From IMG/VR virus record IMGVR_UViG_3300031867_000021, positions 1 through 64,000 of that record: 64,000 nucleotides of DNA. The stretch is one strand, 5' to 3'. Of this stretch, positions 2,316 to 42,786 are shown piece by piece. Position 1 is the stretch's first letter. Each line of letters opens with the position of its first letter. The notes below the pieces were generated by a model. It did not search any database, was not told the DNA's origin, and saw only the letters and a program-made list of their open reading frames with translations. Origin of the DNA: a virus. Taxonomy: Duplodnaviria; Caudoviricetes. Position numbers and translations under genes: made by a program.

Positions 2316-2327
2316 ACTTCCACCTCC

Positions 2328-2729: not shown

Positions 2730-2740
2730 AGCCTCTCACC

Positions 2741-2986: not shown

Positions 2987-3048
2987 AAATATTCTCCTTT
3001 CTAAGAATTGCCCCGGAAGAAACACTCTTCCGGGTCAATCCGTATAAC

Positions 3049-4278: not shown

Positions 4279-4293
4279 TCGTAGCACACTCCT

Positions 4294-5064: not shown

Positions 5065-5154
5065 GGAAAAAATTCTCCTTTCATCCGGCGCGAAAACGCT
5101 GTCCCGGGTGTATATGCAAAAGCCCTGCGAAAACGCGGGGCCGATTGCCGGTGA

Positions 5155-5370
5155 TTATTTCTTCAAGTCCTGTATTTCGTGCTGAACCTCGCTCATCTGG
5201 CCTTCCAGTATGTAGGTTCTTTCAATCACGCTATTATGCTTGTCAACCTTGCTCTCAAGCTGTTTCAGCCTGTATTCCATCAGCGCCTATGACCGCCGAT
5301 TACTCAGGTAAGTGCCGATCAAAGCACACCCTGCTGTGATCAGGCTCCCTGCGATTGCCGTCCATTCCAT
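5155..5370 (-). pseudogene. Holin/XhlA-like membrane protein interrupted by an in-frame TAG (5287-5289)
   Basis: Hand translation MEWTAIAGSLITAGCALIGTYLSNRRS*ALMEYRLKQLESKVDKHNSVIERTY...; one TM segment plus a coiled coil. Confidence 0.65.
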
Positions 5371-5373
5371 CGG

Positions 5374-6081: not shown

Positions 6082-6094
6082 GGTCATCACCTCC

Positions 6095-8008: not shown

Positions 8009-8270
8009 GCCTGCTCACCTCTTTCCCCTCACACTTCCAGCCAAACGTCGGGCCAAGCGGATGCTTGTCCGTGTGAAGAATGAACTGCAGGGTATCTATG
8101 TTCAGCTCCACCTCAGTGCCAGTGCTCTGAATCTGCTTTACAAGAACCGGGAAAACCTGAGCCACATCTGAAAGCAGCTCCTGATCGTTCTTTGTGTTCA
8201 GCACAACATAGGCCCCATACAGAGAAGTCTCTGGAAAAGGCCGAGCACGGAGGCAGAAATCCGTCGACAT
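7998..8270 (-). CDS. Hypothetical protein
   Basis: RBS GGAGG; overlaps the portal start. Confidence 0.45.
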   Translation of the reverse strand: MSTDFCLRARPFPETSLYGAYVVLNTKNDQELLSDVAQVFPVLVKQIQSTGTEVELNIDTLQFILHTDKHPLGPTFGWKCEGKEVSRHDG

Positions 8271-8362
8271 AAAGGGATTCCTCCTTTTTCTTTTATTTTT
8301 TTATATGCACGCACAAACAGAGGGGGAGCTTGTTCAGCATCACCGTGCTCGGTCTTGCTTTC

Positions 8363-9772
8363 TCAATCTATATCAAACGGGCTGAACGGCTTATACACCT
8401 GCGGCGGCTTCTTCGTCGGCGTCAGCGGGTGCGCCATGAGCACGTATCTTGTCTCGTCGTAGATATGATCCTCAGCGTCCGTGTCGATATCCTCCGGTTT
8501 CGTCTCGCTGTAGGGGAGCGTGGAGACCGTCCGGATGAAATCCTTGCAGGTCGAGAACACCTGCAGCTTTGGCCGCCCGTGCTCATCGAACCTCAGCCGC
8601 TCATGCATCTGCATCTTGCCTGCGATCCGGGCGTTATCGCCCTTGTCAAACACCACGCCCTGCCGCCGCCCGTAGAACCCGGGAGCCATCTGATCCGCGA
8701 CGGAGTCGCCCCGGCTCTTGTCGAAGATGGCCGGGTCAGCCACCCGGAGAACCTTGATGTTGTCCCTGATCTCCGGAGCCTCCCGCTCCAGGATGCCCTC
8801 AGCGATCTGCGCGGGCGTCAGCTCGATGCCGACGTTCGCCTGCCGGGGTTTGCACCCGTACCATTCCTTGTACCGGTACAGGCAGCCGTCAGGGCCCATG
8901 GCGAACCACCCGCAGGAGAAGGGCTTCGAGTACCCATGGTCGAACCCAAAGTACCGCGGCCAGTCCGCAGGAATATCGAAGGGCTCGATCACGTGCGTCC
9001 ACAGCCGGTCTTTGTAGTGCGCCGGATCATCCTTCCACTCCTTGAACACCTGTCCCTCGAAGGAATCCCAGTCGCCGTTTAGCAGCGCCCGCCTGAGCGC
9101 TTCCGGCTTCTGCTCCAGCTCGAAGATGTAGTCGTCCGTGATGTACGGGTTCTCTGTCGCCAGGGAGGGGATGTACTGGGTCTTAATCTTCTTCGTCTTG
9201 TGCAGGGTCTCGGAATAGACCTCCTGTGTCCGTATCTCCATGTATGGCCCTGCGTCCACGAACAGCTTCTTCACCCATCCGTGCCCGATGTTTCCGGGGT
9301 TGCTCGCGCTCTTCACAATCGGGACGCACCCCAGACTGCGCTTTGCGCGGAGACGGGTCTTCAGGAAATCGTAGACCACCTGCTCGAAGGTCGTGAGCTC
9401 ATCAAAATACATGTGCTGCGCTTCAAGTCCCGAATATCTAAAACGGTCAGCGGCGTTCTCACAGTGACGGAAGAGAATTTTGCTGCCGTTGACCAGTCTG
9501 TATTCATGCCTCCCGGCATTGTACGTGGCAATGCTTTCCGGATAGCTCGACTGAGCTTCCTTGATATCCGTATCCTCCAGCTCCTGATAGGTTCGCCGGA
9601 AAATGACCGCTACCGTGTTCGGCCACTTCAGGCACCTGAACAGCGCATCCATGATCAGGGCCTTGGTCTTGCCGCCTCCCGCGGCCCCGCCATAGAGGAT
9701 CTCGTTCGCCGGGGAAGCGTGAAACATAGCCTGCTTTTTTGTAGGCTGATAATTGATCACGCAGGTTGGCAT
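8363..9772 (-). CDS. terL: Terminase large subunit
   Basis: Walker A GGAAGGGKT, Walker B YFDELT, ASNPG motif, nuclease residues FDHGY and EDHIYDETRY. Confidence 0.95.
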   Translation of the reverse strand: MPTCVINYQPTKKQAMFHASPANEILYGGAAGGGKTKALIMDALFRCLKWPNTVAVIFRRTYQELEDTDIKEAQSSYPESIATYNAGRHEYRLVNGSKILFRHCENAADRFRYSGLEAQHMYFDELTTFEQVVYDFLKTRLRAKRSLGCVPIVKSASNPGNIGHGWVKKLFVDAGPYMEIRTQEVYSETLHKTKKIKTQYIPSLATENPYITDDYIFELEQKPEALRRALLNGDWDSFEGQVFKEWKDDPAHYKDRLWTHVIEPFDIPADWPRYFGFDHGYSKPFSCGWFAMGPDGCLYRYKEWYGCKPRQANVGIELTPAQIAEGILEREAPEIRDNIKVLRVADPAIFDKSRGDSVADQMAPGFYGRRQGVVFDKGDNARIAGKMQMHERLRFDEHGRPKLQVFSTCKDFIRTVSTLPYSETKPEDIDTDAEDHIYDETRYVLMAHPLTPTKKPPQVYKPFSPFDID

Positions 9773-10182
9773 GGTGTACTCCCGTCAAACCCCGGGGAAT
9801 GGTATAACGCCCGGAGCACGTTATAAATTTTTTTCTTTAGGAGGGGTCTGTCGTGGTATCGGGGTGCTGAGGTTATATACGGCCCGCTTACCAGAGCGCG
9901 GAGTCCCTGGCACGATTCAGCCCCCCGGGGTCTGATCGGGGTACCCCCACCCCCACCTTGGCGGGGGGAGGGGGGTGGCTTTACCTATATTTTCCGGCTG
10001 GGGCTGGTGGCTGGGGCCGGGCTTTGGCCTCTCGCTACTGCATAACCAGACCAATCAGCAATGCATAAAGCTGTGAATACTCATAGCTTTATGCTGCATA
10101 AATGCCTGAAAATAACATGGCAAGTAATATCTGGTCAGAAACAAATACCAGAATAAACAGAAACAGGCGAAAATACCTGTTT

Positions 10183-10218
10183 CAACTATTCGTAAAACTA
10201 TGCTTTTACGAATAGTTG
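10183..10218. repeat. Perfect 15-bp inverted repeat with a 6-bp spacer
   Basis: CAACTATTCGTAAAA-ctatgc-TTTTACGAATAGTTG. Confidence 0.9.
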
Positions 10219-10247
10219 CCAGCTTCCGGTCAGGGGCTCATACCAGA

Positions 10248-10661
10248 TTAGCCATCATCATCGGGGGAGCCGATTTCTGGCATTCCTTCTATTCTGACAT
10301 TGACGGCCTTCTCATCCTCGCCCCAGATCAGCGGCTTGGCAAAGGTCAAGCTATCATTCGCGGCCTTGTTGGCCAGCCACCCATTGTCATCTCTTATCTG
10401 AGACTTGATCTTCTTCAGGGCCTCCGAAGACATGGCAATGCTGATTCTCCTGATCTCATCTTTCCATATCTCATCGTACCAGGGCTTCCGACGCCAGCGG
10501 GACATTTGCATATCAGCGTTCCTAATGAGGTTATCTGCTGATACTCCAACTTCCAGACCGAAAACCTCTTTCAGGATTGCGGGCCTGCCTTCAGCCCTGG
10601 CTTCCATGCGAACGAACATGTCCTGCTTGACCGTCGCTTTCGGGGATCCTCGCTTCGGCAC
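10248..10661 (-). CDS. Probable terminase small subunit
   Basis: Upstream of terL; HTH-like N-terminal half; GTG start after AAAGGAGG. Confidence 0.6.
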   Translation of the reverse strand: MPKRGSPKATVKQDMFVRMEARAEGRPAILKEVFGLEVGVSADNLIRNADMQMSRWRRKPWYDEIWKDEIRRISIAMSSEALKKIKSQIRDDNGWLANKAANDSLTFAKPLIWGEDEKAVNVRIEGMPEIGSPDDDG

Positions 10662-10852
10662 TGTCTCGCCTCCTTTCAGCCGGACGTCGGGCACCCCCGG
10701 AGGGGTGTCTCATGCTCTAACGTTTATGTAATGGGTGTAAAAAAGAAGAGCAACCATAGAATACGCTCTAAGGTTGCTCCTGGTTAGATTTACCTCTAAT
10801 CCACCGATTGCATTATACCCCAAATCATGTGGTTTGTGTAGGCCTTAAATTT

Positions 10853-11266
10853 CTATTTCCCCATCAGCTTATCCAGCTCTCGCAGGGCATATCCTCGTGC
10901 CCTGTATACGCTTTTGCTGTCCTGATACTGCATGATCTCCGATATCTCCCGCATAGGCTTGCCGATAAAATAGTGATAAATCAGCACCTGCCTGAAGTTG
11001 AAAACGGGAATCCGATCTACCAGCGCTCTGGCCTCTTTAATCAGTTTGGCATAATCAGCCAGCTTCTGATCAATCTCCGTCGTGATATCAGCCATGCCTA
11101 CGGCTGCCGTCTCCACCCGACTATGGTTATCGTGGGCTCCAGGCATACCGGCGAAATTGGCGGCTAAAGCACCGCCTAAAGCCAGATAATGTTCCCTCTG
11201 CTCAGCCAGCAGTCTCATCTCCTGCTCAGCCTTCTGGACACTTTCCATGTATTCCTTAGCTCTCAT
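10853..11266 (-). CDS. Late transcriptional activator (RinA/ArpU/DUF1492-like, sigma-region-4-like HTH)
   Basis: RQVLIYHYF..KPMREISEIMQY...YRARGYAL; located just before the packaging genes. Confidence 0.75.
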   Translation of the reverse strand: MRAKEYMESVQKAEQEMRLLAEQREHYLALGGALAANFAGMPGAHDNHSRVETAAVGMADITTEIDQKLADYAKLIKEARALVDRIPVFNFRQVLIYHYFIGKPMREISEIMQYQDSKSVYRARGYALRELDKLMGK

Positions 11267-12617
11267 ACTTATCAATCCTCGCTTTCACCGCGTCGATCAG
11301 GGCATCCTGCCGTTCGGCCTTGCCCGTCAGAATTTTAACCACGCCTTCGTCTACCGTATCCTGTGCTACCAGATGATATATCTTGACCGGCTTATCCTGT
11401 CCCTGCCTGTACAGTCTGGCATTAGCCTGCTGATACAGCTCCAGAGACCACGTCAAACCGTACCACACCAGTATATGTCCTCCGCGCTGCAGATTCAGCC
11501 CGTGCCCGGCGCTGGCAGGATGTGCGATCAGCAGGGGAATCTGTCCGTCATTCCAGCGCTGTACCTCGTCATACCCCTTCAGCTGGACTGCCTGCGGAAA
11601 CCGCCTGCATATCCTCTCAGCATCGTGCTGATAACTGTAATACACCAGCACCGGCTCGCCGTTGGCCGCCTCAATCAGATCCTCCAGGGCATCCAGCTTG
11701 GTATCGTGCACCAACTGCCATTTATGATCCTCAGTATAAACCGCCCCATTTGATATCTGCAGGAGTTTTCCTGCCAGAACCGCCGCATTTTGTGCCGTGA
11801 TCGTCTCACCCCGCATCGGAAGGACTAAATCCTTTTCCAGCGTGTCGTAGGCTCTGCGGGCCTTTTCTGACAGCTTTACTGGGATTGTGATATCCACTCT
11901 GTCCGGCATCTGCAGATAATCCTCCGCTGTCATGCTCATACAGATATCCTTAATCCTGCCGTAAATCTCTGCTGATGCGCCCCGGATCGGCACCCAGTTG
12001 TACACCACATTTCCGCTTCTGTGGCCCGGGATGAACCACCTTTCCCGATAATGCCCGATGAATTTTCCAAGGCGCTCGCCCCTGTCCAGCAGATAGATCT
12101 GGCTCCACAAATCCAGCAAACCGTTAGGTGCCGGTGTACCGGTCAGTCCAACAATCCTCCTGACAGCAGGCAGCACTCGCCGAAGGGCCTTGAAACGCTC
12201 TGCTTTTGGGGACTTGAAACCGCTCAGCTCGTCGATCACCAGCATATCAAACGGCCAAACCTTAGTCTCGGCCTGATGATCCACAAGCCAGGCAACGTTC
12301 TCCCGGTTGATCACGTAAACGTCCGCATCTTTCCGAAGTGCCGCCTCCCGGTCTGTGCTGCTCCCAAGCACCTTCCTGATCCTCAGCCCCTGCAGATGAT
12401 CCCACTTCCGGGCCTCTTCGGCCCAGACCGTCATGGCGACCCGTAAAGGGGCGATCACCAGCACCTTTGAAACAGCAAAATCCTCAATCAGCTCCTTGAC
12501 TGCCGTCAGCGTGATCACAGTCTTGCCAAGCCCCATCTCCAGAAAGAGCCCGCACCGCTTATGATCCAGAATCCACTGCTTTGCCGCTTCCTGATATGGA
12601 TAAGGCCTGTAAAGCAT
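11256..12617 (-). CDS. SNF2-family helicase
   Basis: EMGLGKT, IDELS, LTGTP, SAGHGLNLQ and QANARLYRQGQ motifs. Confidence 0.93.
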   Translation of the reverse strand: MLYRPYPYQEAAKQWILDHKRCGLFLEMGLGKTVITLTAVKELIEDFAVSKVLVIAPLRVAMTVWAEEARKWDHLQGLRIRKVLGSSTDREAALRKDADVYVINRENVAWLVDHQAETKVWPFDMLVIDELSGFKSPKAERFKALRRVLPAVRRIVGLTGTPAPNGLLDLWSQIYLLDRGERLGKFIGHYRERWFIPGHRSGNVVYNWVPIRGASAEIYGRIKDICMSMTAEDYLQMPDRVDITIPVKLSEKARRAYDTLEKDLVLPMRGETITAQNAAVLAGKLLQISNGAVYTEDHKWQLVHDTKLDALEDLIEAANGEPVLVYYSYQHDAERICRRFPQAVQLKGYDEVQRWNDGQIPLLIAHPASAGHGLNLQRGGHILVWYGLTWSLELYQQANARLYRQGQDKPVKIYHLVAQDTVDEGVVKILTGKAERQDALIDAVKARIDKYES

Positions 12618-12897
12618 CCGCAATCACCTCTTCCTCCACAAAATCCAGCACCTGATCCCTGCCATACAGCGTCCGCACGTCCATGCCCAGCTCCTCCAGC
12701 CGTCGGTGTGTTTCCCGCTGCAGTGGAGACAGACGTCCTTTTTCCTGCTTAAGCTCCACAAAAATAACCCTGCCTCCCGGAAGCAAGACCAGCCTGTCAG
12801 GCACCCCCGCATTGCCGGGGCTCACCAGCTTGATGGCCCAGCCGCCTGCCTCTTTGATCCTCCTGCACAGCAGTTTCTCACTTCTTGACTCCAGCAT
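12559..12897 (-). CDS. VRR-NUC domain nuclease
   Basis: GVPDRLV...FVELK...GRLSPLQ. Confidence 0.9.
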   Translation of the reverse strand: MLESRSEKLLCRRIKEAGGWAIKLVSPGNAGVPDRLVLLPGGRVIFVELKQEKGRLSPLQRETHRRLEELGMDVRTLYGRDQVLDFVEEEVIADALQALSISGSGKAVDSGS

Positions 12898-13153
12898 CCA
12901 GCCTCGCCTCCCATCTGGCCCGCTTGGCCTGCATAACCTCCCGGACGTGCATCTTGCTGTAGCTGATCTGCTCCAGATACAGCATCACGTCCGCAATCTC
13001 CTCCTCGAACCTGTTGATTGCATCCTGTTCCGTCATAGGCGTCGGATTCACCCCGTCGAATACCCTCCTCAGTTTAAGAGCCGCCTGCCCCAGTTCACAG
13101 CATTCCTCTGATAATCCTGCCAGTAGTTCCACAAGTGGTAAATAGATTTTCAT
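12878..13153 (-). CDS. MazG-like nucleotide pyrophosphohydrolase
   Basis: EECCEL...EEIADV acidic motifs. Confidence 0.7.
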   Translation of the reverse strand: MKIYLPLVELLAGLSEECCELGQAALKLRRVFDGVNPTPMTEQDAINRFEEEIADVMLYLEQISYSKMHVREVMQAKRARWEARLDAGVKK

Positions 13154-13183
13154 CGTCTAAGCCTCCCGGTCGAAAAAAGGTCT

Positions 13184-13279
13184 GTGTAGGATGTGTTGCC
13201 TAATATACAAACTCTTTCTTATAAGGGATAATTTATAGACATGGAACGAACATTGGTATTTAAACGACACATCCTACAC
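13184..13279. other. Candidate replication origin
   Basis: 13-bp inverted repeats GTGTAGGATGTGT (13184-13196) and ACACATCCTACAC (13267-13279) flank an AT-rich core, immediately downstream of the primase gene. Confidence 0.45.
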
Positions 13280-13304
13280 TATCTGTACATCTAAGCACAT
13301 CGTG

Positions 13305-15734
13305 CTACGCATCTGTTTTCAGACGCAATCCGCGCCAGTATCTGGACTCGGCTGTTCTGAATTTCTGGTAGTCGTTATTCTCCAGAGCCTGCGCGAAGTC
13401 GCGAGCCCGCTTCGGGTGGATACCATTCTGCCCGGCCCACACTTGGTACGCTTGATACAGCTCTCCGGCCTGCACCTCATAGTCTTCGCTAACCTCGCAG
13501 ACATCTGTCACGAAGGTATTAAACCAGTCCTCTCCGTTCAGGTATTCTCCGGTTGCCTTCTTCACACATCGAGCCATCGGGAGCTTGCAGCCGTTCTCAT
13601 AGAATCTGACTGCGCCGTCTATTACCCATTGCAGGACGGCGGGCCCGCACTCCTTGAACAGCACTCCCTGGTAATCTGTGATCACCTGATCCGGAGGAAG
13701 TGTGGAAGGGAAGGGCGCGATGGCAATCCTTCTCTTTGTGCCTCCGTCCATGCTGCCTAGGCGGGGCAGGTGGTTGGTGTGCATGATCGTTGTGTGTGTC
13801 GGGATGAATTCCATCGGGTCTTTGTACAAAGCCCTTGCTGAGATCACGTCCCGGGATGTGATCCGCTTGAGCTGGGCATTGGACATATAAGCAGACTCCT
13901 CAGTCTCACCCAGCACTGCGAGCCGCACCCCGCGCAGAGCGGCGATATAGCTTTGATCAGGCCGGGAACCGGGAGACGGTGCCAGCACGTCGGCATTGAT
14001 GGCCTTGGCATAATCGCCAAACACGCTCTTGAGCACTCCGAAAAAGGTGCTTTTACCGTTGCCGCCTTTGCCGTAGCTGATAACCAGCCCCTCCTCATAT
14101 ACCTTGCCCACGGCAGCCATTCCGGCCAGCGTCTGCAGGTACTCCGCGAAATCCTCGTCTCCTCCGGTAATATGGTCAATAAAGTCTTCCCATTTGGCTT
14201 TACCCATCAGCCCCGGGGAGACTGCCGTGCACTTGGTGCACCTCGCCTTCGGGTTATGCGGGCCCAGCTCGCCAGTACGCAGGTCAATGATCCCGTCCGG
14301 GGTGTTCATGGCCCATGGGTCTGCGTCAAAGCTGTCAGTCCGTGGCTCGTCGGCGATACTTTTGAGGATCGTTGTCAGGTGGCTGATTCCCGGGGCTGTC
14401 CGGAGTCTGCAGACCGCTGCAAATTCCTTTTTGGCTGCCGCTGTCTCCTCCTTTGTGTCGGCCAGTGCCATCCGGGTCTGAGCGTTTCGGTACAGCACGT
14501 CGGTAAACTGCATCATGAGCATGGCCGCCTCGGCGTCGGCGTCCAGGAGCCACTTGGTGCCGTCCCAGAACATCCAGCCGAAGGCTTTGTTTCTCATCAC
14601 GCCATAGCCATAGGTGTCGGACATGAGCACGGACAGCCCTATCTCCGTCAGGTCACCCTTGAAGGCTTCCAGATCGGCACTCTTTTCAAACACACTTTCC
14701 GGCGTCAGGAGGACGCCTTCAGCCAGCTCAGCCCGTACCCGGTCGTCCGTCTGGCACATCTTTTTCATGGCGGCCACGCTTGGCAGGCTTCCGATGGGTT
14801 CCTGGCTGTCCTTGTCCAGCTCGCCGAAGAGATGGATCCGTACCATGTCAAAGGCATTGCAGAGCCGGTTGCTGATCGGGTCGGTGCTGTGGTGCGAGTA
14901 GATGAAAGTGTCGTTGTCATAGGTCGCCGCGCCGTTGGTCGTGGATCCTTTTGTGTATGTCCAGCGGCCTTCCGTCACCGGGCTGTAGACGTCTGGCAGG
15001 AATTTTTGGATAGCCTCCGTGATCGTGTAGGCCCGGTTGAAGGCTCCGACGATCCCTGGCTTGGTCAGGGGATCCCCCTGCACTTTGCCCATCTTGACGA
15101 CGGCCTCGGCCTGCCTGCTTGATGTAGGCCATGTCCGCATATCCTGCCAGTCATCATACATGGCGAGGATTTCGTCCGGATCGACCCATCCGGGGCCCGG
15201 ATGCACCTTGACGATGAACTCTCCGTCAGAGCACACTGACGGCCAGAACATGAGCCTGGAGGCCTCATAGGTCGTGTCATCAAAAGCGTCAATGTCGATC
15301 AGCTTGGCCAGCATCCGGGCGACGGGCTCATACTCTGCCGCCGAGACAGGCCGTGAGAGGGGAATGACAAACCTGAGCCTGGGCTGTTCCGGGGTGTGGC
15401 TGTGGCTGGTGTGCATCAGGCAGGCCTTGCCTACCATGATGTCCCACAAGTCCCACAGCCCCATATCCGCATAGTCCGCGTCCAGACAGATGAGCTGCCG
15501 GTCGGTGATATTCCCGGCCCGGCGCACCCCGCCCTCGATCCTGCCGCCGACGTACCCGCCGACGTCCTTGGCGTCCCCGCGCTGATCTTTGGTCATGGCA
15601 GCATATTCTGCCATTGTTTCATTGGTCACGACAGGAGTGGAGAGCTTCCGACAGAGCCGCTCCCAGCTCACCGTCTTGGGAACCCAGCGGGTGGCCCGCT
15701 TGGACTCACCCACTGAGATTGTGATATCAGGCAT
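13305..15734 (-). CDS. Primase-helicase, P4/D5 family (AEP-like N-terminus, SF3 helicase C-terminus)
   Basis: LDAD and HTSHSH primase motifs; D5_N (DADPWAMNTPDGIIDL); Walker A GKGGNGKST; TNHLP. Confidence 0.9.
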   Translation of the reverse strand: MPDITISVGESKRATRWVPKTVSWERLCRKLSTPVVTNETMAEYAAMTKDQRGDAKDVGGYVGGRIEGGVRRAGNITDRQLICLDADYADMGLWDLWDIMVGKACLMHTSHSHTPEQPRLRFVIPLSRPVSAAEYEPVARMLAKLIDIDAFDDTTYEASRLMFWPSVCSDGEFIVKVHPGPGWVDPDEILAMYDDWQDMRTWPTSSRQAEAVVKMGKVQGDPLTKPGIVGAFNRAYTITEAIQKFLPDVYSPVTEGRWTYTKGSTTNGAATYDNDTFIYSHHSTDPISNRLCNAFDMVRIHLFGELDKDSQEPIGSLPSVAAMKKMCQTDDRVRAELAEGVLLTPESVFEKSADLEAFKGDLTEIGLSVLMSDTYGYGVMRNKAFGWMFWDGTKWLLDADAEAAMLMMQFTDVLYRNAQTRMALADTKEETAAAKKEFAAVCRLRTAPGISHLTTILKSIADEPRTDSFDADPWAMNTPDGIIDLRTGELGPHNPKARCTKCTAVSPGLMGKAKWEDFIDHITGGDEDFAEYLQTLAGMAAVGKVYEEGLVISYGKGGNGKSTFFGVLKSVFGDYAKAINADVLAPSPGSRPDQSYIAALRGVRLAVLGETEESAYMSNAQLKRITSRDVISARALYKDPMEFIPTHTTIMHTNHLPRLGSMDGGTKRRIAIAPFPSTLPPDQVITDYQGVLFKECGPAVLQWVIDGAVRFYENGCKLPMARCVKKATGEYLNGEDWFNTFVTDVCEVSEDYEVQAGELYQAYQVWAGQNGIHPKRARDFAQALENNDYQKFRTAESRYWRGLRLKTDA

Positions 15735-15846
15735 ACTCAGTATCCTCCATATGTTCGCGGCATACCCACACCGGCACCCCGCGGATCCAGATGTACCCGA
15801 CGGCATCCCGGTCACGGAACATTCGGGCGCATAGTTCACAGATCAT
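15727..15846 (-). CDS. 39-aa CxxC...CxxH mini-protein
   Basis: Hand translation MICELCARMF...VCREHMEDTEYA; overlaps both neighbouring genes. Confidence 0.45.
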   Translation of the reverse strand: MICELCARMFRDRDAVGYIWIRGVPVWVCREHMEDTEYA

Positions 15847-16058
15847 TCTGCATCACCGCTTTCTCCGTCTGCACAGAACCAATCAGGTTTACACCATCCG
15901 TTGTGGAAGCAAACACTGTCTGAATTGTCGCACGCTTCTATGTCTTTATTCCAATAATTGCAATCCTTGCATAAAACCAACGGCTTCATTTCGAGCACGC
16001 AACCAGTTTTGTCCTTATCAAGTTTCGGGATCATTACCCACGCTTCAGATTCAGCCAT
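15843..16058 (-). CDS. Cys-rich hypothetical protein (CKDC...FCADGE family)
   Basis: ORF track; motif shared with 16065..16535. Confidence 0.6.
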   Translation of the reverse strand: MAESEAWVMIPKLDKDKTGCVLEMKPLVLCKDCNYWNKDIEACDNSDSVCFHNGWCKPDWFCADGESGDAE

Positions 16059-16064
16059 CCCACT

Positions 16065-16535
16065 TCACCGCCTTTCCCCGTCAGCACAATACCAATCATC
16101 AGTTGTCCAACGCTTGTGCAATTCACAATACCGATACAACTCACCATTTAACTCTGTCTCGTGTTTGTCAAGATGTTTCACGCAATCCTTGCATCTGACA
16201 ACAGGTTGTCTATCTTCAATGGCAATAGCGCAGTTTTCACAATTGTCCTGTTCTTTCAGCAGTTCTTCCTTTGTAGGCACCGGAGATAATTCCACACGTT
16301 TTTTCAGAATGTCGAGCCACCACTGATAGTTCAGCACAACAACGCCCTTCCCAAGAAATTTAACCGTAGACCCTTCCCGGCATCTGCGGATGATTTCCGC
16401 ATCTGCTTCCTGCTCTTTCAGCAGTTCCAGCTTTTTGCAAGCATCCTCAATCGTTTGAGCAAAATCTTCTCTTCCTATATTTGACAGATACAGACTTATT
16501 TCGGAAAGGCCATAAATAATATCATCACTTTTCAT
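16065..16535 (-). CDS. Modular hypothetical protein (two LLKEQ motifs plus CKDC...CADGE)
   Basis: ORF track; repeated motifs. Confidence 0.6.
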   Translation of the reverse strand: MKSDDIIYGLSEISLYLSNIGREDFAQTIEDACKKLELLKEQEADAEIIRRCREGSTVKFLGKGVVVLNYQWWLDILKKRVELSPVPTKEELLKEQDNCENCAIAIEDRQPVVRCKDCVKHLDKHETELNGELYRYCELHKRWTTDDWYCADGERR

Positions 16536-16546
16536 AATTACCTCAT

Positions 16547-16792
16547 TTATTGTTTGTTGTCATATTTTGCACAAAGCTTAGGATACTCTGGAATTGCACC
16601 CCTGCATCGTTTCACAAGCAAATCAGCAATTTTTTCCAGCCCTTCGAATAAATATCCTATGTCTGTATGTAAAGCGTAACCTTTAGAATCAACCCACATG
16701 CTGTTTGAACAAAACGATTCTTCATTGTTCAAATAGTCAATAAGTGTTTGCGCCGCTTTTAATGCCCTAACAGCTTTTTTGTCATTATTCAT
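16547..16792 (-). CDS. Hypothetical protein (AT-rich)
   Basis: ORF track; coupled to the upstream gene. Confidence 0.5.
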   Translation of the reverse strand: MNNDKKAVRALKAAQTLIDYLNNEESFCSNSMWVDSKGYALHTDIGYLFEGLEKIADLLVKRCRGAIPEYPKLCAKYDNKQ

Positions 16793-17054
16793 TCCATTTC
16801 ACCGCCTGTCCGCATTGATCGCAATACTTTTGTTTCTCATAGAAAAAGCATTTATGACACTTTGGGCACCTGTAAAGACGGTCGATTTCGTTCAGCACTT
16901 CTGCTTCCGGCTCAACCGCTTCCTGCTCTTTCAGCAAGGCAAGGACGGCTTTTGCCGTCTCTTGTACCTCGCTGTCGCTGTACCACTGCTGCCAGTCATC
17001 CTGCGTCAGCCCTTCCAAGCAGCCCATTACTGTCAATCTATCCATCATTCCCAC
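16785..17054 (-). CDS. LLKEQ plus zinc-ribbon hypothetical protein
   Basis: CPKC...YCDQCGQAVKW. Confidence 0.65.
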   Translation of the reverse strand: MGMMDRLTVMGCLEGLTQDDWQQWYSDSEVQETAKAVLALLKEQEAVEPEAEVLNEIDRLYRCPKCHKCFFYEKQKYCDQCGQAVKWNE

Positions 17055-17341
17055 TTCACCTCATGACCGCAATAACCGCAGTAATTGATTTCCTTGTCTG
17101 CCCTCTTTCTCGGCAATCTTTGACCACATTTTCCGCAATACACTTTTCCTTGGCTCCATGTTGGCTTCACGGGTTCCTGCTCTTTCAGCAGTATTTCTAC
17201 TTCTGTCTTTATCTGGTCTATGTAATCGCATAAACTGGAATACACATCCCAGTTGCCTGGGCTAACTACAGGATGAACGGTCACATCTGCGAACAAGCGC
17301 AAATCATCCAGATGAGTTATAACCACTTCTCTATCAGTCAT
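17045..17341 (-). CDS. LLKEQ plus zinc-ribbon hypothetical protein
   Basis: CGKC...YCGYCGHEVKW. Confidence 0.65.
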   Translation of the reverse strand: MTDREVVITHLDDLRLFADVTVHPVVSPGNWDVYSSLCDYIDQIKTEVEILLKEQEPVKPTWSQGKVYCGKCGQRLPRKRADKEINYCGYCGHEVKWE

Positions 17342-17597
17342 CCCACTTTACCGCCTTCCCACAATATGGGCAGAACCGTGTGCCAAGGTGCAATCTCTGC
17401 GCTCCCATTTCGATGCTTCTGTCCGTAGAGCACCACGGACAATAAGCATTTCCATACATGTCCGTTTTAACTTGCATCGGTTTCTGCTCTTTCAGCATGG
17501 AAAGCACATACTCTGCGTCTTCCTTTGAAAGACGAACATCCTTAAATTCTCCAGCCTCGTTTATGGCTGTTTCCAAAGTTAATTCTAAAAGAGTCAC
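17334..17597 (-). CDS. LKEQ plus zinc-ribbon hypothetical protein
   Basis: CPWC...FCPYCGKAVKW. Confidence 0.65.
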   Translation of the reverse strand: MTLLELTLETAINEAGEFKDVRLSKEDAEYVLSMLKEQKPMQVKTDMYGNAYCPWCSTDRSIEMGAQRLHLGTRFCPYCGKAVKWDD

Positions 17598-17603
17598 CCT
17601 ACT

Positions 17604-17966
17604 TCACCGCCTGTCCAGCTTCGGCAATTCTGGCCTATACATCCATGCCGTTATTTCTCTTATGTCTCGTCCGCTGTCGAGCATGATTCCATCGTCAACA
17701 CCGTCCACATAATCGTCAATCCAGATATCTTTCCCGTCTGTCATGAGATACTGCCCATCATCTCCCGGTAAGCCGTGAATAATACCGTCATCGTCCTCTG
17801 TGAGCAGATTCCACTCCTGCTCTTTCAGCAGTTCCAGCGCATCATCTATATATTTTATGCCGCTCTTACATCCAAGATTCCCGACAACGCCATCAGCTCG
17901 ATTGCTTCCCATCTCAAAAAACAACCTTGCGGCTTTCAGTTCCATGATAACCTTCTCTCTGTCCAT
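17604..17966 (-). CDS. LLKEQ plus DUF551-like hypothetical protein
   Basis: LP...G.YL...ITAWM..PE.P pattern. Confidence 0.55.
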   Translation of the reverse strand: MDREKVIMELKAARLFFEMGSNRADGVVGNLGCKSGIKYIDDALELLKEQEWNLLTEDDDGIIHGLPGDDGQYLMTDGKDIWIDDYVDGVDDGIMLDSGRDIREITAWMYRPELPKLDRR

Positions 17967-17971
17967 TCACT

Positions 17972-18130
17972 TCATCGACCTTCCGTTATATCTTTTGATA
18001 CACATTCCCATCCAATGAGTTCTACCTCGCTAATCGGTTCAAAATCGAATAATTCTTCCATTCTTTTTTCTGCTTCTTCTTCTGTTTCGCCCTCAACCCA
18101 TAAATCAATATTGAATTTGAAATGTGCCAT
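17972..18130 (-). CDS. 52-aa acidic hypothetical protein
   Basis: Hand translation MAHFKFNIDLWVEGETEEEAEKR...EGR; bounded by the array junction motif. Confidence 0.5.
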   Translation of the reverse strand: MAHFKFNIDLWVEGETEEEAEKRMEELFDFEPISEVELIGWECVSKDITEGR

Positions 18131-18149
18131 TCACTTCACCGACCTTCCT

Positions 18150-18284
18150 TCATTCTTTGTCCACAAGAACACAAAGAAATTCTTTTGTGTTATCAAAGCC
18201 TACCGCTATATAACCAGTTCCTTCCAACGCATCGTTGATCTTGTTGAGGATTTCAGCTATGTCTTCTTGCCTTATGTCACTCAT
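18150..18284 (-). CDS. 44-aa hypothetical protein
   Basis: MSDIRQEDIAEIL...; start re-assigned to follow the junction motif. Confidence 0.45.
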   Translation of the reverse strand: MSDIRQEDIAEILNKINDALEGTGYIAVGFDNTKEFLCVLVDKE

Positions 18285-18289
18285 TGCTC

Positions 18290-18631
18290 TCACCGACCTT
18301 CCGACATATCTGCGCCACAGTTTGGACAGAACGAATAGCAAGCTGTTTGTCCATCCTGTGAAACACCGCATTGGCTGCATTTCATCCAACTGTGTCCATT
18401 TGTGTTTCCGAAAATCCAATGCCCTTTTTCGCGCTGATGTTCAAGAAAACGAATTTGTGCTTCATGCTCTTTCATCGTTCTCACTGCGTTGTAAAACCCG
18501 CGATCATAAGCGTTATGTACAGCCTCACAGATTTCATCACTTACAGCATCCATGCAGAAACCGCCGACCGGAGAGCAGTTCCCAAGATTCCCACGCATTG
18601 GGCAATCTTTTCTCATATCTGGATCATACAT
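18290..18631 (-). CDS. Zinc-ribbon hypothetical protein (GHW...CSQCG...FCPNCGADM)
   Basis: Motif typical of Firmicutes phage accessory genes. Confidence 0.65.
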   Translation of the reverse strand: MYDPDMRKDCPMRGNLGNCSPVGGFCMDAVSDEICEAVHNAYDRGFYNAVRTMKEHEAQIRFLEHQREKGHWIFGNTNGHSWMKCSQCGVSQDGQTACYSFCPNCGADMSEGR

Positions 18632-18773
18632 CCCATTTCACCGTCTTTTACCAACATTTACAGAAACTGCAGACATCTGACATGTTCTCTGTCTTTCGCC
18701 CATTAATCGCTTTTTTGACGTTTTATCCTCTGATTTTGCATTTTTTCTGCAAAAAGCGGGGTTAAACCGTGTT

Positions 18774-19082
18774 CTAAACAGCCTTTTCTGTTTTGCTGGC
18801 CTGATTTGTCATTCCCGGACCTTCCTTTTCCACGATCGCGGTTGCATACTCGTCATTCACGAGCTTCTCCAACGTGTACAGAGCTTTCATATCCTGATAC
18901 ATCATGTTCCATGTGTCATGCACCTGACCAAGCCCAACCATTTCAGGGTATTTTTCCGCGCTGAATGCCTTTTCCCATTTTGACCAAACCGCACCAGCTA
19001 AATGCTGAAGCGCAATTCCGCATTCCATTTCCTGTTCCTGACTCCACGCCATGCCCCAATTTTCATCAGCCTTTTTGCTCAT
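18774..19082 (-). CDS. Hypothetical protein
   Basis: ORF with RBS GAGGAG. Confidence 0.5.
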   Translation of the reverse strand: MSKKADENWGMAWSQEQEMECGIALQHLAGAVWSKWEKAFSAEKYPEMVGLGQVHDTWNMMYQDMKALYTLEKLVNDEYATAIVEKEGPGMTNQASKTEKAV

Positions 19083-19085
19083 CCG

Positions 19086-19589
19086 TCAATCCTCCTCTGG
19101 ATAGATCGTTATATCCAAATGTCTGCCAAGAAAACGGAGCCCATAATCCGTCAAGCTATACCACGCTTGCTTTCCTTCCTCTTCCGGCTCGTGTTTCCTG
19201 ATGATTCCGAGTGCCCCGCTGAAGTAGTCCAGATATTTGTTGTTTCCTGCCCAATAGTTCCGATACGGCTTATAAAAAATCTTTCCGTGCCGCTTATAGG
19301 CATGGCGCACGCCTTCCGGCCACATTCCGATCATGTGCATCATGTTCTCAAGCACTTTCTTGAGATCCCAACCTTTGTTCCTGAAGTCATCCTCCACACC
19401 CATGTCTGTCCCCATGTCGCCGAGATAATTTGAATATTCTTCCTGGAACCGGTCGAGCTGCTTCCGGGTAAACCTGCAGCCATAGCTCCCATCCTTGAAG
19501 GTTCTCTGGTCCTCTTCTGACGCGAAGCATTCAGGATAATCCCCGGCCTCGCTTCGCTCCGGTTCATATGGACATTTGAAACACTTCAT
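19086..19589 (-). CDS. Hypothetical protein (HAYKRHG..FYKPYRNY family)
   Basis: ORF track; start re-assigned to MKCFKC. Confidence 0.55.
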   Translation of the reverse strand: MKCFKCPYEPERSEAGDYPECFASEEDQRTFKDGSYGCRFTRKQLDRFQEEYSNYLGDMGTDMGVEDDFRNKGWDLKKVLENMMHMIGMWPEGVRHAYKRHGKIFYKPYRNYWAGNNKYLDYFSGALGIIRKHEPEEEGKQAWYSLTDYGLRFLGRHLDITIYPEED

Positions 19590-38703: not shown

Positions 38704-38741
38704 AAAAAAAGAGCGTTGGTGTCTTGCACGCACCATCGCTC
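38704..38741 (-). terminator. Minus-strand intrinsic terminator upstream of the recombinase gene
   Basis: GAGCGATGGTG...CACCAACGCTC followed by T7. Confidence 0.5.
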
Positions 38742-38832
38742 TGCGGAAGATGTGGGTTGGGCACATCATCCATGGAAATAATGATACCACACTCTTTCGC
38801 TATAATCAACAAAGAAAGGGTGTGTTTTGTTT

Positions 38833-39816
38833 ATGGCAACGCAGGATAAGGTTTTACTCATAAACCAGATCGAAGGAACTCTCAAACCAAGGATGTTCGC
38901 CAACCTTCTCGAGGAAGCCGTTACTGAAATCCAGGAGCACCTTGACGAATACGATGTAACACATCTCGCAGCGGAGTCCACCGGATCCGACGATATGCTG
39001 GACACCTACATCAATGCAAAGAAGGTCAGCGGCAGATCCGAAAAGACGCTTGTGCGTTATCGGTATGTGATAGAAAGGTTTCTGAAGGCAGTGAACGTGA
39101 AAACAAAAGATATCACTACCGAACATATCCGAAATTATTTTGCTAAAGAAATGACGCGCGGTGTGGCTGAAAGTACAGTTGACGGGATTCGCCAGATCTT
39201 GTGCGGGTACTTCGGTTGGCTGGAACATGAGAAGATGATCCGTGCGAACCCTATTTCCAGCATCGAAGCAATCAAGTTTCAAAAGAAAGAACGAACATCA
39301 ATGTCTGATGCGGATATGGAACTTTTGAAACGGCACTGCCAAAATATCCGTGACCGCGCCATCTTCCATTTTCTGCTGGCCACTGGTTGCCGAATCAGTG
39401 AAGTCACCAGTCTGAACCGCACTGACGTTGATCTGGACAACGGAGAATGCATTGTCCTCGGAAAAGGAAATAAGGAACGCACCGCGTTTCTGGATGACGT
39501 AGCGATTTTGACATTGCGCGAATATCTATCCAGCCGGAACGATACGTGCGAAGCACTGTTTGTAAATAAAAATGGCGGTCGGCTCCAGCCCGGTGGTGTC
39601 CGTGCAATGCTTAAGGTACTTTCGGAGAAAGCGGGAGTAGATAATGTGCATCCGCATCGGTTTCGCAGGACAATGGTTACCCGGTTGCTTAATCGCGGAA
39701 TGCCTATCCAAGAAGTCGCTATCATTGTCGGGCACGAAAAAGTTGACACAACCATGCGGTACTATTCATCGAATAAAAACCGGATCAGGAATTCATATCG
39801 AATCTATATGGCTTGA
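38833..39816 (+). CDS. Tyrosine recombinase (XerC/D-like)
   Basis: Complete catalytic set: GCRISE (R), GKGNKER (K), HPHRFRR (HxxR), GHE (H), TMRY (Y); SAM-like N-terminal domain. Confidence 0.93.
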   Translation: MATQDKVLLINQIEGTLKPRMFANLLEEAVTEIQEHLDEYDVTHLAAESTGSDDMLDTYINAKKVSGRSEKTLVRYRYVIERFLKAVNVKTKDITTEHIRNYFAKEMTRGVAESTVDGIRQILCGYFGWLEHEKMIRANPISSIEAIKFQKKERTSMSDADMELLKRHCQNIRDRAIFHFLLATGCRISEVTSLNRTDVDLDNGECIVLGKGNKERTAFLDDVAILTLREYLSSRNDTCEALFVNKNGGRLQPGGVRAMLKVLSEKAGVDNVHPHRFRRTMVTRLLNRGMPIQEVAIIVGHEKVDTTMRYYSSNKNRIRNSYRIYMA

Positions 39817-39820
39817 CAAA

Positions 39821-39856
39821 GGAACCGGGATGCAATCGCACCCCGGTTTTTCTTTG
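39821..39856 (+). terminator. Terminator after the recombinase gene
   Basis: AACCGGGATGC-aatc-GCACCCCGGTT followed by a T-tract. Confidence 0.7.
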
Positions 39857-39886
39857 CCTTTTGCCTTACGTTTGACCCCGACTAAT

Positions 39887-39906
39887 TGATTTAAAGTCCT
39901 ATTTAA
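39887..39906 (+). other. Putative recombinase core site B
   Basis: TGAT-TTAAA-GTCCTA-TTTAA (5-bp inverted arms, 6-bp spacer). Confidence 0.55.
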
Positions 39907-39911
39907 CGAAC

Positions 39912-40097
39912 TTAACTTATTGCATTGGGATAATGTTGTTTCATCTTGCTCCAGATGTAGTTTGCACTCTGCTTCGCTCCAAGTGCATTCGGATGAATGT
40001 TGTCAATGAAATACTGCGGAGTATTCTCGCTAATCTGACTTCCGGCATATTCCTTAATAACAGGGATGCCAAGAAACGCATCACAAAAACTTATCAA
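39912..40097 (-). pseudogene. C-terminal remnant of an SGNH/GDSL esterase domain
   Basis: Block V motif DNIHPN..GAK; no RBS and no N-terminal blocks; directly behind the fibre stop codon. Confidence 0.65.
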
Positions 40098-40107
40098 AGA
40101 CCTTCAA

Positions 40108-42786
40108 TTATACAGTGTTCAGCAATAACGGTAAATTGTTGAAATTATATTCGCCAAGAAGATTGTTGTTCGGGTCTTGCAGACTTACATCCGCTCCGTT
40201 GTTTCCAAACGCACCGAAATTCTGGAAATTATAATTATATGTGCCGCCTGTATATCCACTGATGACTGCAAATCTTGCTCCATACTGTTGGTGTGGTGCG
40301 TATGATATGCTATTGCGAACGGTAAGTCCTTGATTTGTTTGATTGTCCGCCAACCCGGTATGTACAAACAATCCGCCATGCCCAACGTCTCCGAATGTAC
40401 CGTCACATTCGCTTATAAAAGTGCAATTTTCAAACGTAAAGTCGCAATCCTTACATGTACCAATGCCAACAGCCGCACCTGCATTGCTAACAAATTTGCA
40501 ATTTATGAATTTAACTTTGCAGGAACCGAAATCAACGTGAACGGCATAGGCAAATGTTCTGCCTTGTGTCTGCGTGTGGTGTTCCTCATCTGTCATGTTT
40601 ATAAAACTGATTCCTTGAATTGTTCCGTTTGTCTGTATTTCTGCGGGTGGATATGAATAATCACCCAAATTGTCAAAAACTATCGTGGTGTTTGAATCAT
40701 ATCCAAACAGCGAAATCCATCGTGGCGTTTGATAAGTTGCACCACGCAGTTTGAACCGTTCATAATTGCCGGGTAGTATGACAATCGTATATGGTTTAGA
40801 TGGGCTATCATCTTTAATACTGTCAATGGCGTCCTGTATGGTTGTATAATCACACCCATTCTGATTCCCGACATATATTATTGTTGGTATATTGTGTTTT
40901 AATTCACGTCCATTCCTGTATAGGATAACATCAAGACAATAATTGTTACCGCAATAAGACCAAATGTCTGTGCTTTCGGACGATGGAATATATTTGTTTG
41001 TGTCAGTTGACCCGGAAGGCATCGCAGTACAATTTGATGTTGTTTCGTTCGGCGTTGATGCGACGTTGCCTGTTGCGGCTTTAATGCTCACATAAAAATT
41101 TCCGGACAATTGTACAGGTGAATCGAAAACGGCATCAACCCATTGCATTGCGCTGTTTGATTGTACTGCAACCGTTTTTGATGCAAGCACACTTGTAAAT
41201 GATCCATCCCAAATTGCAATTTCAACATTAATCGTTGCTGAAGCACCAGAGCATCTGGCATAAACCGATACTTTATCAACTTCACCAGTAAAAGAATATC
41301 GTGTTGCAAATGCCCGAAACGTAGTAGAACCAACACCTTCAACGCTTGTATCAAATCCTTTGAATTCATTAACAAATGCGTTATTTGATATATCATCAAA
41401 AGCAGATTCTGTTCTATCGCTTAATTGATTTATTTCTGTATCAATTGTATTTATCGCACCGTTAATTTCTGCATCAATGGTTCTTTTCAAATTTGCAAGT
41501 GCACCATTGATGTAGTTAATTACGACATAAGCATTAGGTGAAAACTGTGTGCGTGTGCTAAAACGAACATAACACGTTCCCTGCGGAATAGTAACGCTGT
41601 CAGAGCTGAAATGCCCGTCAAAATCTCCATTCCCACTATCTGGAATCATTTCTTTATTTTCATCATAGAAAGCATAACCATAACAGTACGCTTTCCATGA
41701 CGAATTATTAAAATCAAAAAGCTCAAATTTATCATTTTGTGAAAACGGACATAATTCAGATATGGAAAAACTGTCAGATGGCCCGGTCGGATTCCCCGTC
41801 ATACCTATATAGTAACCAACAGCCAAAGGAACGGTTAGCGTGTTTATTGCACCGTTAATTTCTGCATCAATGGTTCTTTTCAAATTTGCAAGTGCACCAT
41901 TGATGTAGTTAATTACGACATAAGCATTAGGTGAAAACTGTGTGCGTGTGCTAAAACGAACATAACACGTTCCCTGCGGAATAGTAACGCTGTCAGAGCT
42001 GAAATGCCCGTCAAAATCTCCATTCCCACTATCTGGAATCATTTCTTTATTTTCATCATAGAAAGCATAACCATAACAGTACGCTTTCCATGACGAATTA
42101 TTAAAATCAAAAAGCTCAAATTTATCATTTTGTGAAAACGGACATAATTCAGATATGGAAAAACTGTCAGATGGCCCGGTCGGATTCCCCGTCATACCTA
42201 TATAGTAACCAACAGCCAAAGGAACGGTTAGCGTGTTTATTGCGCTCTTTAAATCAGTAACCGCCTCCCCCATTTCGGTGTAATCTTCCGGGATTGATTC
42301 GAGAACTTCCTCTGCCGCGGTTGCCGAAGCTGCGGCCGCAGAGGCAGAACCGGCCGCAGCAGTCGCACTTCCAGCCGCCGCAGTCTCATGAGAAGCCGCC
42401 TGCTCAGCATAATACTTCGCGTTGTTGTGATACGCCACATCTGTTGATCCTACATCCGCGCCGTGGCGTCTCCCGATCGCATAGGCTTCCGCATCGGCAA
42501 CCCTGTCAGCCGCGTCTTCCGCATGTCCTTCGGCATCATCAACGCACTGCTGAGCATCCGCCAGGGCGTCAGCGGCTTCCTGAGCACTGGCCGCCGCCGC
42601 CTGAGCCGCCGTTTCGGCTGAAGTCTTTGACCCTGAAGCCTGATCCGCATACTGCGCAACCAGTCTCGCGTTCTGGGCAAACTCCGCCTGATCCTGACAA
42701 AACTGGGCATAAGTTCCCGCATAGCCGCCCCGCACAGCAGCGCCGTAAGCAGTTACGATCCCGGCTGAATATCTTCTGTCTGCCAT
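40108..42786 (-). CDS. Tail fibre/receptor-binding protein with a pectin-lyase-like beta-helix C-terminus
   Basis: Ala-rich constant N-terminus (AY..AV..GY.GT, YHNNAKYY) up to DLKSA; then CDYTTIQDAID...TIVILPGNYE beta-helix start. Confidence 0.8.
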   Translation of the reverse strand: MADRRYSAGIVTAYGAAVRGGYAGTYAQFCQDQAEFAQNARLVAQYADQASGSKTSAETAAQAAAASAQEAADALADAQQCVDDAEGHAEDAADRVADAEAYAIGRRHGADVGSTDVAYHNNAKYYAEQAASHETAAAGSATAAAGSASAAAASATAAEEVLESIPEDYTEMGEAVTDLKSAINTLTVPLAVGYYIGMTGNPTGPSDSFSISELCPFSQNDKFELFDFNNSSWKAYCYGYAFYDENKEMIPDSGNGDFDGHFSSDSVTIPQGTCYVRFSTRTQFSPNAYVVINYINGALANLKRTIDAEINGAINTLTVPLAVGYYIGMTGNPTGPSDSFSISELCPFSQNDKFELFDFNNSSWKAYCYGYAFYDENKEMIPDSGNGDFDGHFSSDSVTIPQGTCYVRFSTRTQFSPNAYVVINYINGALANLKRTIDAEINGAINTIDTEINQLSDRTESAFDDISNNAFVNEFKGFDTSVEGVGSTTFRAFATRYSFTGEVDKVSVYARCSGASATINVEIAIWDGSFTSVLASKTVAVQSNSAMQWVDAVFDSPVQLSGNFYVSIKAATGNVASTPNETTSNCTAMPSGSTDTNKYIPSSESTDIWSYCGNNYCLDVILYRNGRELKHNIPTIIYVGNQNGCDYTTIQDAIDSIKDDSPSKPYTIVILPGNYERFKLRGATYQTPRWISLFGYDSNTTIVFDNLGDYSYPPAEIQTNGTIQGISFINMTDEEHHTQTQGRTFAYAVHVDFGSCKVKFINCKFVSNAGAAVGIGTCKDCDFTFENCTFISECDGTFGDVGHGGLFVHTGLADNQTNQGLTVRNSISYAPHQQYGARFAVISGYTGGTYNYNFQNFGAFGNNGADVSLQDPNNNLLGEYNFNNLPLLLNTV
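41456..42243. repeat. Exact in-frame tandem duplication, 2 x 393 bp (131 aa)
   Basis: 41456-41850 equals 41849-42243 by manual comparison; the protein repeat is identical. Confidence 0.92.
42237..42256 (-). other. Putative recombinase core site A, in frame within the fibre gene (DLKSAI)
   Basis: Minus strand reads TGAT-TTAAA-GAGCGC-AATAA; inverted relative to site B; coincides with the GC step. Confidence 0.55.

Follow-up and report, generated by a model that had tools for sequence, protein, structure and literature searches.

The tips of tail fibres determine phage host range, and the mobility of such tips between unrelated phages is usually credited to chance recombination followed by selection. 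The fibre inversion systems Gin of phage Mu, Cin of P1 and Min of p15B, summarised in PMC6109161, are serine invertases which rely on an enhancer and on Fis and act on stored alternative tips. In the R64 shufflon, the tyrosine recombinase Rci acts at sfx sites located at the 3' end of a plasmid pilus adhesin gene, with one arm and the adjacent core of these sites being conserved, and several segments are rearranged by inversion only. In integrons, the Xer-related integrase IntI is encoded beside the primary attI site, where unrelated gene cassettes with their attC sites are inserted. Of the systems described, the closest is the Rin shufflon in prophages of Bifidobacterium (Mavrich et al. 2018, PMC6109161), in which an armless, XerD-like tyrosine recombinase adjoins the variable 3' part of the gene encoding the receptor-binding protein. 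There, an asymmetric crossover repeat of ~11 bp has one copy in the open reading frame (ORF) at the joint between constant and variable parts, the lysogeny integrase is encoded elsewhere, and 2-5 alternative C-terminal cassettes are stored, whose inversions are seen in reads and between genomes. Engineered cassette exchange on the T7 fibre tip, based on Cre and lox variants, was reported as ORACLE (PMC8043750), which is the nearest match to natural fibre cassette exchange, a subject on which no paper was found in the literature searched. In the current work we report that a Rin-like recombinase and two sites are arranged around a fibre tip in a real, conserved and previously undescribed manner, in a viral DNA stretch of 64,000 nucleotides (here named the window) which represents the first 64 kb of the 107,602-bp IMG/VR record IMGVR_UViG_3300031867_000021. 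L- and P-numbers are labels for the loci and proteins used for comparison. The arrangement comprises the following elements, in coordinates of the window:

38833..39816, plus strand: tyrosine recombinase, armless and Xer-like, 327 amino acids (aa), with PF00589 (2e-38) and SAM-like core-binding domains
39817..39866, plus strand: intrinsic terminator of the recombinase gene (hairpin 39817-39855, -20.1 kcal/mol, z -3.7, followed by a U run)
39887..39906, plus strand: site A, with arm TGATTTAAA(G), 6-bp spacer GTCCTA and partial inverted arm TTTAA
40108..42246, minus strand: variable fibre part (tip cassette), residues 181-892, with two 131-aa domain copies, a middle part and a C-terminal all-beta tip
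42241..42256, minus strand: site B, with the same arm TGATTTAAA(G), spacer GAGCGC and a weak second arm, in frame as (T)DLKSA at the constant/variable joint
42257..42786, minus strand: constant N-terminal fibre part, residues 1-176, 60.6% guanine plus cytosine (GC), matching tail-fibre family phrog_3279

The locus resembles Rin in that an armless recombinase flanks a variable fibre end, a separate integrase is encoded elsewhere, and a short repeat occurs both at the joint in the ORF and beyond the gene. It differs from Rin by the presence of one cassette, with no stored alternative and no inverted state in ~25 loci, by an unrelated site (TTCCCTAACCC in Rin versus TGATTTAAAG here), and by the phylum of the host. 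With R64 it shares a tyrosine recombinase at the 3' end of an adhesin-type gene and the conservation of a single arm, R64 being, in contrast, a multi-segment system of a plasmid pilus. With Gin, Cin and Min it would share a phage-encoded, site-specific change of the fibre C-terminus and of host range, which those systems achieve with serine invertases and stored tips. As in ORACLE, two non-identical sites bracket the fibre tip and would permit an in-frame swap without excision or inversion, ORACLE being engineered. Xer/dif and Cre/loxP likewise combine an enzyme of this type with a core beside its gene, made of inverted arms around a 6-bp spacer, and the locus differs from them by Xer model scores below cut-off, by a second, inverted copy in the neighbouring gene and by a consistent linkage to fibre genes.

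The recombinase had been judged intact, and convergent on the fibre gene, from a first reading of the letters and their ORFs (here the sequence-only reading), and this is borne out: its catalytic residues R187, K211, H275, R278, H301 and Y310 do not vary across a family alignment of 24 sequences. Residues 56-134 correspond to PF13495 and PF02899, while residues 1-55, an N-terminal extension of ~55 aa, have no family match, and the domain search returned no lambda-type arm-binding domain. The scores against NCBIfam models are all below cut-off (XerA 216/220, XerC 170/335, XerD 155/330), the integron integrase models give 55 and 44 bits versus cut-offs of 265 and 435, and the best solved-structure relatives are XerC-like, XerA and XerD proteins. 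The 4051 homologues retrieved are of near-constant length and, in all contexts examined, they adjoin fibre genes, between the last tail gene and the lysis genes, as the sequence-only reading had proposed to verify. This synteny is common to L008, L090, L186, L187, L275 and TPELB_ph1, and the gene order last tail gene, Xer-like gene, holin, endolysin is also found in L002, L004 and L008. In the isolated Terrisporobacter phage TPELB_ph1 (L283; PP197244.1 15705-22112), a last tail gene of 577 aa is followed by an Xer-like 'integrase', a holin, an endolysin and a second 'integrase' of 527 aa. The Xer-like protein of this phage is 30% identical to the recombinase, and a search of its AT-rich genome for the sites did not identify them.

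The 10-mer TGATTTAAAG occurs exactly at 39887-39896 (plus strand) and, in inverted orientation, at 42247-42256 (minus strand), with no further exact copy in the window or anywhere else in the record, and the second copy is read in frame in the fibre gene. As described from the letters, each copy extends into a core of two arms around 6 bp, reading TTAAA-GTCCTA-TTTAA at A and TTAAA-GAGCGC-AATAA at B, and site A lies 20 nt beyond the terminator hairpin. The 5-6-5 geometry of these cores is an assumption, on which the designation of the spacers as heterospecific depends, and the cleavage positions within A and B are likewise putative. The interval between the two sites has a GC content of 0.393, versus 0.606 for the N-terminal fibre part and 0.474 for the recombinase gene, and the hand counts by which this shift had been noticed (19/60 at 41641-41700 and 42/60 at 42301-42360) are exact. 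When the row for L126 is disregarded, the interval is AT-richer than both of its flanks in 8/10 loci, which fits cassettes drawn from a common pool, fibre tips being often AT-rich anyway.

Three separate inverted repeats of at least 10 bases, namely TGATTTAAAG and two others, join the 291-bp spacer to the fibre gene, and the TGATTTAAAG repeat taken alone is at chance level. The significance of the site pair comes solely from its conservation in relatives. The motif TGAYTTAAAG, followed by ~6 bases and TTTAA, is located 3' of the terminator in many homologues of the recombinase, with an equivalent hairpin ahead of the A-type core, and in L089 site A is a perfect 9-6-9 palindrome. An in-frame B site combined with an inverted, noncoding A-type site beside the recombinase gene is present in the window, L186, L187, L090, L008, L105, L109, L110, L117, L124, L126, L166, L101 and L275, whose fibre N-termini are otherwise unrelated (Ala-rich, collagen-like and others), and the same layout is seen in at least 15 unrelated phages. 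In L268, L269 and L040 the site pair is present and the recombinase is not in the available DNA. Fibres of at least 450 aa adjoining recombinase homologues contain 24 in-frame B sites, encoding (D/E)LKSA at the constant/variable joint, and a search of up to 2 kb past the fibre stop codon recovered an inverted partner for 11 of these and a direct partner for 3 (two of them being palindromic cores), with ~1.5 expected by chance. The sequence-only reading had asked whether the DLKSA site and the A-type site are kept while the interval between them is unrelated, and this is what is found, for instance between the window and L186: both cores and an 89%-identical recombinase module are common to the two, and nothing else is. 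Exact-pattern scans for the flanks of A and B gave nothing in IMG/VR, and 13 matches in metagenomes, 11 of which are chance matches. In L090 a homing endonuclease gene of the GIY-YIG/NUMOD type (11124-12167) is located inside the A-B interval, between the fibre stop codon and site A.

Site B is restricted in its codons as well. The serine codon that follows LK is AGC or AGT (AGY) in 17/17 cases and TCN in 0/17, and the TTA of site B is the sole TTA leucine codon in the 60%-GC N-terminal part of the fibre gene; B is thus constrained as DNA, beyond the peptide that it encodes. Too few joints were recognisable for codon use to be compared between fibres with and without the recombinase. Past the shared arm and the following G, A and B differ from each other in every locus. 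The spacer of B is GAGCGC almost everywhere, since B encodes K-S-A, while the spacers of A are of several types (GTCCTA, GTCAGT, GATTCC, GTGTTA and others). A nearly constant B spacer and several types of A, each unlike its B, together with the absence of stored tips and inverted states described below, are what one would predict where recombination between genomes takes place at matching sites only, as in the cassette exchange proposed by the sequence-only reading.

Comparison of closely related loci, with recombinases 88-100% identical, places the right end of homology at site A. The DNA that the window has in common with its relatives begins within a further element:

38704..38832, plus strand: region upstream of the recombinase gene, which represents the variable left end of the DNA common with relatives and includes a hairpin at ~38710-38742

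L088, from another sample, matches the window at 98% identity over 3.3 kb, all likeness being lost directly after TGATTTAAAGT, and the recombinase modules of L089, L186 and L187 are 88-89% identical to that of the window. In every comparison among the window and these four loci, the right end of homology is positioned inside the core of site A (39897-39906), while the left end varies, being at 38704 for L186 and at 38743 for L089 and L187. Between loci with the same spacer (the window and L186; L089 and L187) the likeness extends through the second arm, and contigs encoding the identical recombinase protein P0029 diverge just after the core. When endpoints were pooled over all loci in the breakpoint test, they were mostly from unrelated phages. 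A moving cassette with both ends at the sites is seen in one pair, L268 versus L269 (-L271), breakpoints at A alone being seen repeatedly. Neither the phages L268 and L269 nor the N-termini of their fibres are related, yet 1236 bp are common to both at 99% identity (tips P0239 and P0240). Their likeness starts at the B site, where AGCGC is preceded by GAGTTAAAG in L268 and by GACTTAAGG in L269, and ends 22 nt beyond the stop codon in an inverted A-type site reading TGAGTTAAAG-TGTCCA-TTAA on the other strand. Close relatives of the L269 cassette were not found in IMG/VR. A presumed two-gene swap of C-termini in L110 was rejected, as its minus-strand frame of 511 codons is an antisense artefact of a GC-rich region in which the real gene is a small plus-strand ORF. 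The assemblies of L091-L094, L268-L271, L278-L282, L105 and L140 end a few hundred bases past the recombinase or fibre stop codon, or within 90 nt of a B site (contigs L268-L271 all ending 11-87 nt beyond the fibre stop codon), which gives only a hint of mixed populations that differ beyond the sites.

Two further features are located within the interval bracketed by the sites:

39912..40097, minus strand: fossil 3' end of an earlier SGNH-type fibre tip (61 codons, no start codon, stop codons upstream, a DxxH block, GC 0.398)
41447..42243, minus strand: tandem duplication of 393 bp (131 aa), with copies 99.5% identical, beginning 3 bases after site B

The fossil matches the last ~55 residues of fibres P0181 (phmmer E 6e-17) and P0169, both of which have an N-terminus of the same family as the window fibre, so that the segment had rightly been taken for the remnant of a different enzymatic tip. 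The N-terminal family closes with SIPxDYTxLxxDVxDLKSA and bears many different tips. Relatives of the window's tip are, in turn, joined to unrelated N-termini in P0238 (from a phi29-like phage), P0239 and P0240, the last two being 63% identical to it. No solved structural relative of the tip was found by sequence, and an AlphaFold model built from 4 sequences, had a mean predicted local distance difference test (pLDDT) value of 48, a beta-helix thus being no more than putative. The tandem duplication was missed by the sequence-only reading: the full fibre consists of 892 aa, and an independent 88,008-bp assembly of the same phage encodes a version of 761 aa (P0123) from which the duplication is absent. 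The ends of the 393-bp repeat share an 11-nt microhomology, GCAATAAAYAC. L129 contains two identical B sites 456 bp apart.

The reading which we favour, to which we give slightly less than an even chance, is a site-specific replacement of the tip cassette between phages, in trans. The recombinase would be a fibre-dedicated, armless Xer-type enzyme of the Rin-shufflon kind, and site A, past the enzyme's own terminator, together with the inverted, in-frame B site encoding DLKSA, would bracket the entire receptor-binding tip cassette. Recombination of B with B and of A with A would involve two genomes within the same cell, whether of two phages in a co-infection or of a phage and a prophage already resident, with the outcome that the tip cassette is swapped in frame. 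That the recombinase itself makes the observed crossovers, and that these join two genomes, are both inferred.

Several observations weigh against this reading. In a large fibre family the DLKSA joint coincides with a domain boundary, and most members of this family have no recombinase nearby in the available DNA, so that ordinary recombination and selection for working chimeras could explain the breaks at B. Tips also differ at this joint where the available DNA contains no recombinase, such as in the phi29-like lytic phage L272, and L040 carries both sites with the recombinase absent within 10 kb. Breakpoints at both sites come from the single pair L268/L269, whose short contigs show no recombinase. 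Covariation between the arms of A and B within genomes is weak overall (10/17 matches versus ~7 expected, not significant), striking single matches being those of L268, where A and B both carry GAGTTAAAG, and of L269, where both carry GACTTAAGG. The fossil fibre end inside the A-B interval means that at least one replacement ended elsewhere than at A, either in this lineage or, if the fossil arrived with the cassette, before. Finally, relatives of the recombinase at 40% identity differ by inversions, as set out below. The claim of the sequence-only reading that the cassette is exchanged via both sites thus stands in part: the clustering of breakpoints at A, and at both sites in L268/L269, agrees with it, and the fossil end, the DLKSA joint in recombinase-free fibres and the 40%-identity invertases do not.

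The mutual inversion of A and B is in itself the geometry of an inversion reaction, in which A and B would recombine in cis and flip the 2.35-kb interval. Such a switch would yield the fibre either at full length or truncated to 180 aa followed by a tail of 84 codons, or else the locus would be a Rin-like relic, a decayed shufflon which has lost its stored tips. After inversion, the flank of A on the side of the recombinase would adjoin the AGCGCAATAAAC side of B, and the N-terminal fibre part would adjoin TCCTATTTAACG. Rin, which inverts, is the closest described system, and the single conserved arm with a variable remainder recalls the sfx sites of R64 Rci. In addition, among the relatives at 40% identity, nested inversions between sites of 11-12 bp distinguish L161/163/165 from L162/164, which shows that the wider recombinase family includes invertases. 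Against this, an inverted state is found in none of the ~25 loci of the TGATTTAAAG branch, nor in three assemblies of this phage, and no alternative tip is stored on the opposite strand in the window or its relatives, in agreement with what had been noted from the letters for the window. The frames that open at A, to which the fibre would be fused, are short (13-84 codons in the window and relatives) and not conserved, A and B differ past the arm and G in every locus, and an OFF state would produce virions without a receptor-binding tip. L008 contains no shufflon-type inverted repeats beyond the site pair. Inversion is considered unlikely here. In the gut phage contigs L161 (5543-8525) and L162 (6320-9302), a true shufflon with multiple inversions is seen: AAACACGAA sites of 11-12 bp delimit three rearranged segments, the middle one of which carries the recombinase gene itself, and the C-terminus of a 192-aa protein is altered.

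A different use of site A is suggested by a gene for a 61-aa ribbon-helix-helix (RHH) protein, which is situated right of A in L088 and accompanies the recombinase in >10 other loci. In L088 (3310-3678), L095 (8045-8411) and L275 (7029-7400) this gene lies between the left and right core arms, as would result from insertion at the point of crossover, and one phage backbone is seen both with and without it; it is absent from the 107,602-bp record analysed here. The RHH gene may encode an accessory protein or directionality factor, and its own TTGACA-N18-TATCAT promoter contains one more copy of the arm in the spacer. A recombinase beside its own site with an inserted cassette resembles an integron, from which the locus differs by the lack of an IntI-specific score (55 bits versus 265) and by a main cassette which is a gene fragment fused in frame.

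The recombinase and A could consequently serve another role, namely genome multimer resolution of the Cre/lox or Xer/dif kind, or insertion and excision of the RHH cassette, with the match at the fibre joint being a by-product of the coding motif and with ordinary homologous or illegitimate recombination setting the boundaries. The dif/lox-like, inverted-arm core of A beside an Xer-like enzyme, the RHH insertions and the tips that differ at DLKSA in phages without the recombinase would all be expected from such a role. It does not predict that the enzyme family is always found 3' of the fibre gene in very different phages, that an inverted partner past the fibre stop codon is enriched sevenfold, that codon choice at B is fixed, or that the L268/L269 cassette ends in an A-type site, and we regard it as improbable, to much the same degree as inversion.

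The gene also scores as a member of the phage integrase family and has a site directly downstream, as would a lysogeny integrase with site A as its attP, and L088 could in principle represent a phage-host junction. The DNA right of A in L088 is, however, a cassette which adjoins recombinase homologues in other phages and is not host DNA, and a position between the fibre and lysis genes would split the late operon; the lack of an arm-binding domain likewise speaks against an integrase. A second, longer tyrosine integrase (380 aa) is encoded at 97178-98320 of the record, and in L090 (72% identity) and L275 (66%) the integrases found with cI/cro-type genes are distinct from the Xer-like gene, which is located between the lysis genes and the fibre. 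A role of the recombinase in lysogeny is therefore unlikely, the sequence-only reading having called such a role not evident, and the version with attP at A has only a slender probability. Domain searches of the window revealed no helix-turn-helix genes near the recombinase. In the record, the 380-aa integrase is followed by a complete 933-aa MmeI-type restriction-modification enzyme (97178-101194; L086 13178-17194), the two likely forming a lysogeny module with a defence moron.

On the fibre side, the minus strand encodes baseplate genes (Baseplate_J, DUF2612) and a short fibre-like gene, followed by the fibre gene (42786-40108), which converges with the recombinase gene; beyond the latter, the minus strand carries SH3-domain lysin-type genes and a holin. 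The final 2435 bases of the record (105168-107602) repeat positions 16908-19342 without a difference, from which it follows that the fibre-bearing phage is an 88,260-bp circle or a terminally redundant genome (16908-105167). The independent 88,008-bp contig agrees with the 88,260-bp genome, corresponding to 87,867 bp plus a 141-bp overlap after subtraction of the 393-bp duplication. Positions 1-16907, encoding a P22-like portal, terminase, capsid, SNF2 helicase and D5 primase, belong to a different phage, and the 107-kb record is probably a lariat-shaped assembly path via the common 2.4-kb segment and not a single genome. The phage collection contains no DNA match to the window, no cultured phage exceeds 37% protein identity, and close relatives of the baseplate-side neighbour were not found in IMG/VR. 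The nearest genomic relatives, at 44-46% identity, are found in Lachnospiraceae, Clostridia and Ruminococcaceae metagenome-assembled genomes from sheep and other ruminants, and Clostridia of the rumen are the probable hosts.

Replacement of the tip cassette in trans, the reading favoured above, can be widened to a phage Xer-like family with a near-universal in-frame site, TTA-AAG-AGC-GC (LKSA), and a multi-spacer second site by the recombinase gene, by means of which tips would be swapped among unrelated phages and prophages, and of which A would capture RHH-type genes in an integron-like manner; this broader proposal is possible, on balance somewhat doubtful. The recombinase family includes thousands of homologues of constant length which are almost wholly uncultured, and experiments could possibly begin from the isolated phage TPELB_ph1, whose gene order is the same. 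If the reaction were inversion, a two-site fibre switch without a stored tip would still differ from all described fibre shufflons. If tip cassettes are indeed replaced between phages, a dedicated enzyme with fixed in-frame joints would provide a mechanism for fibre mosaicism, would account for the accumulation of breakpoints at a single peptide motif within a large family of fibres from gut and rumen phages, and would represent a natural precedent for the site-bracketed tip swapping engineered in the laboratory.

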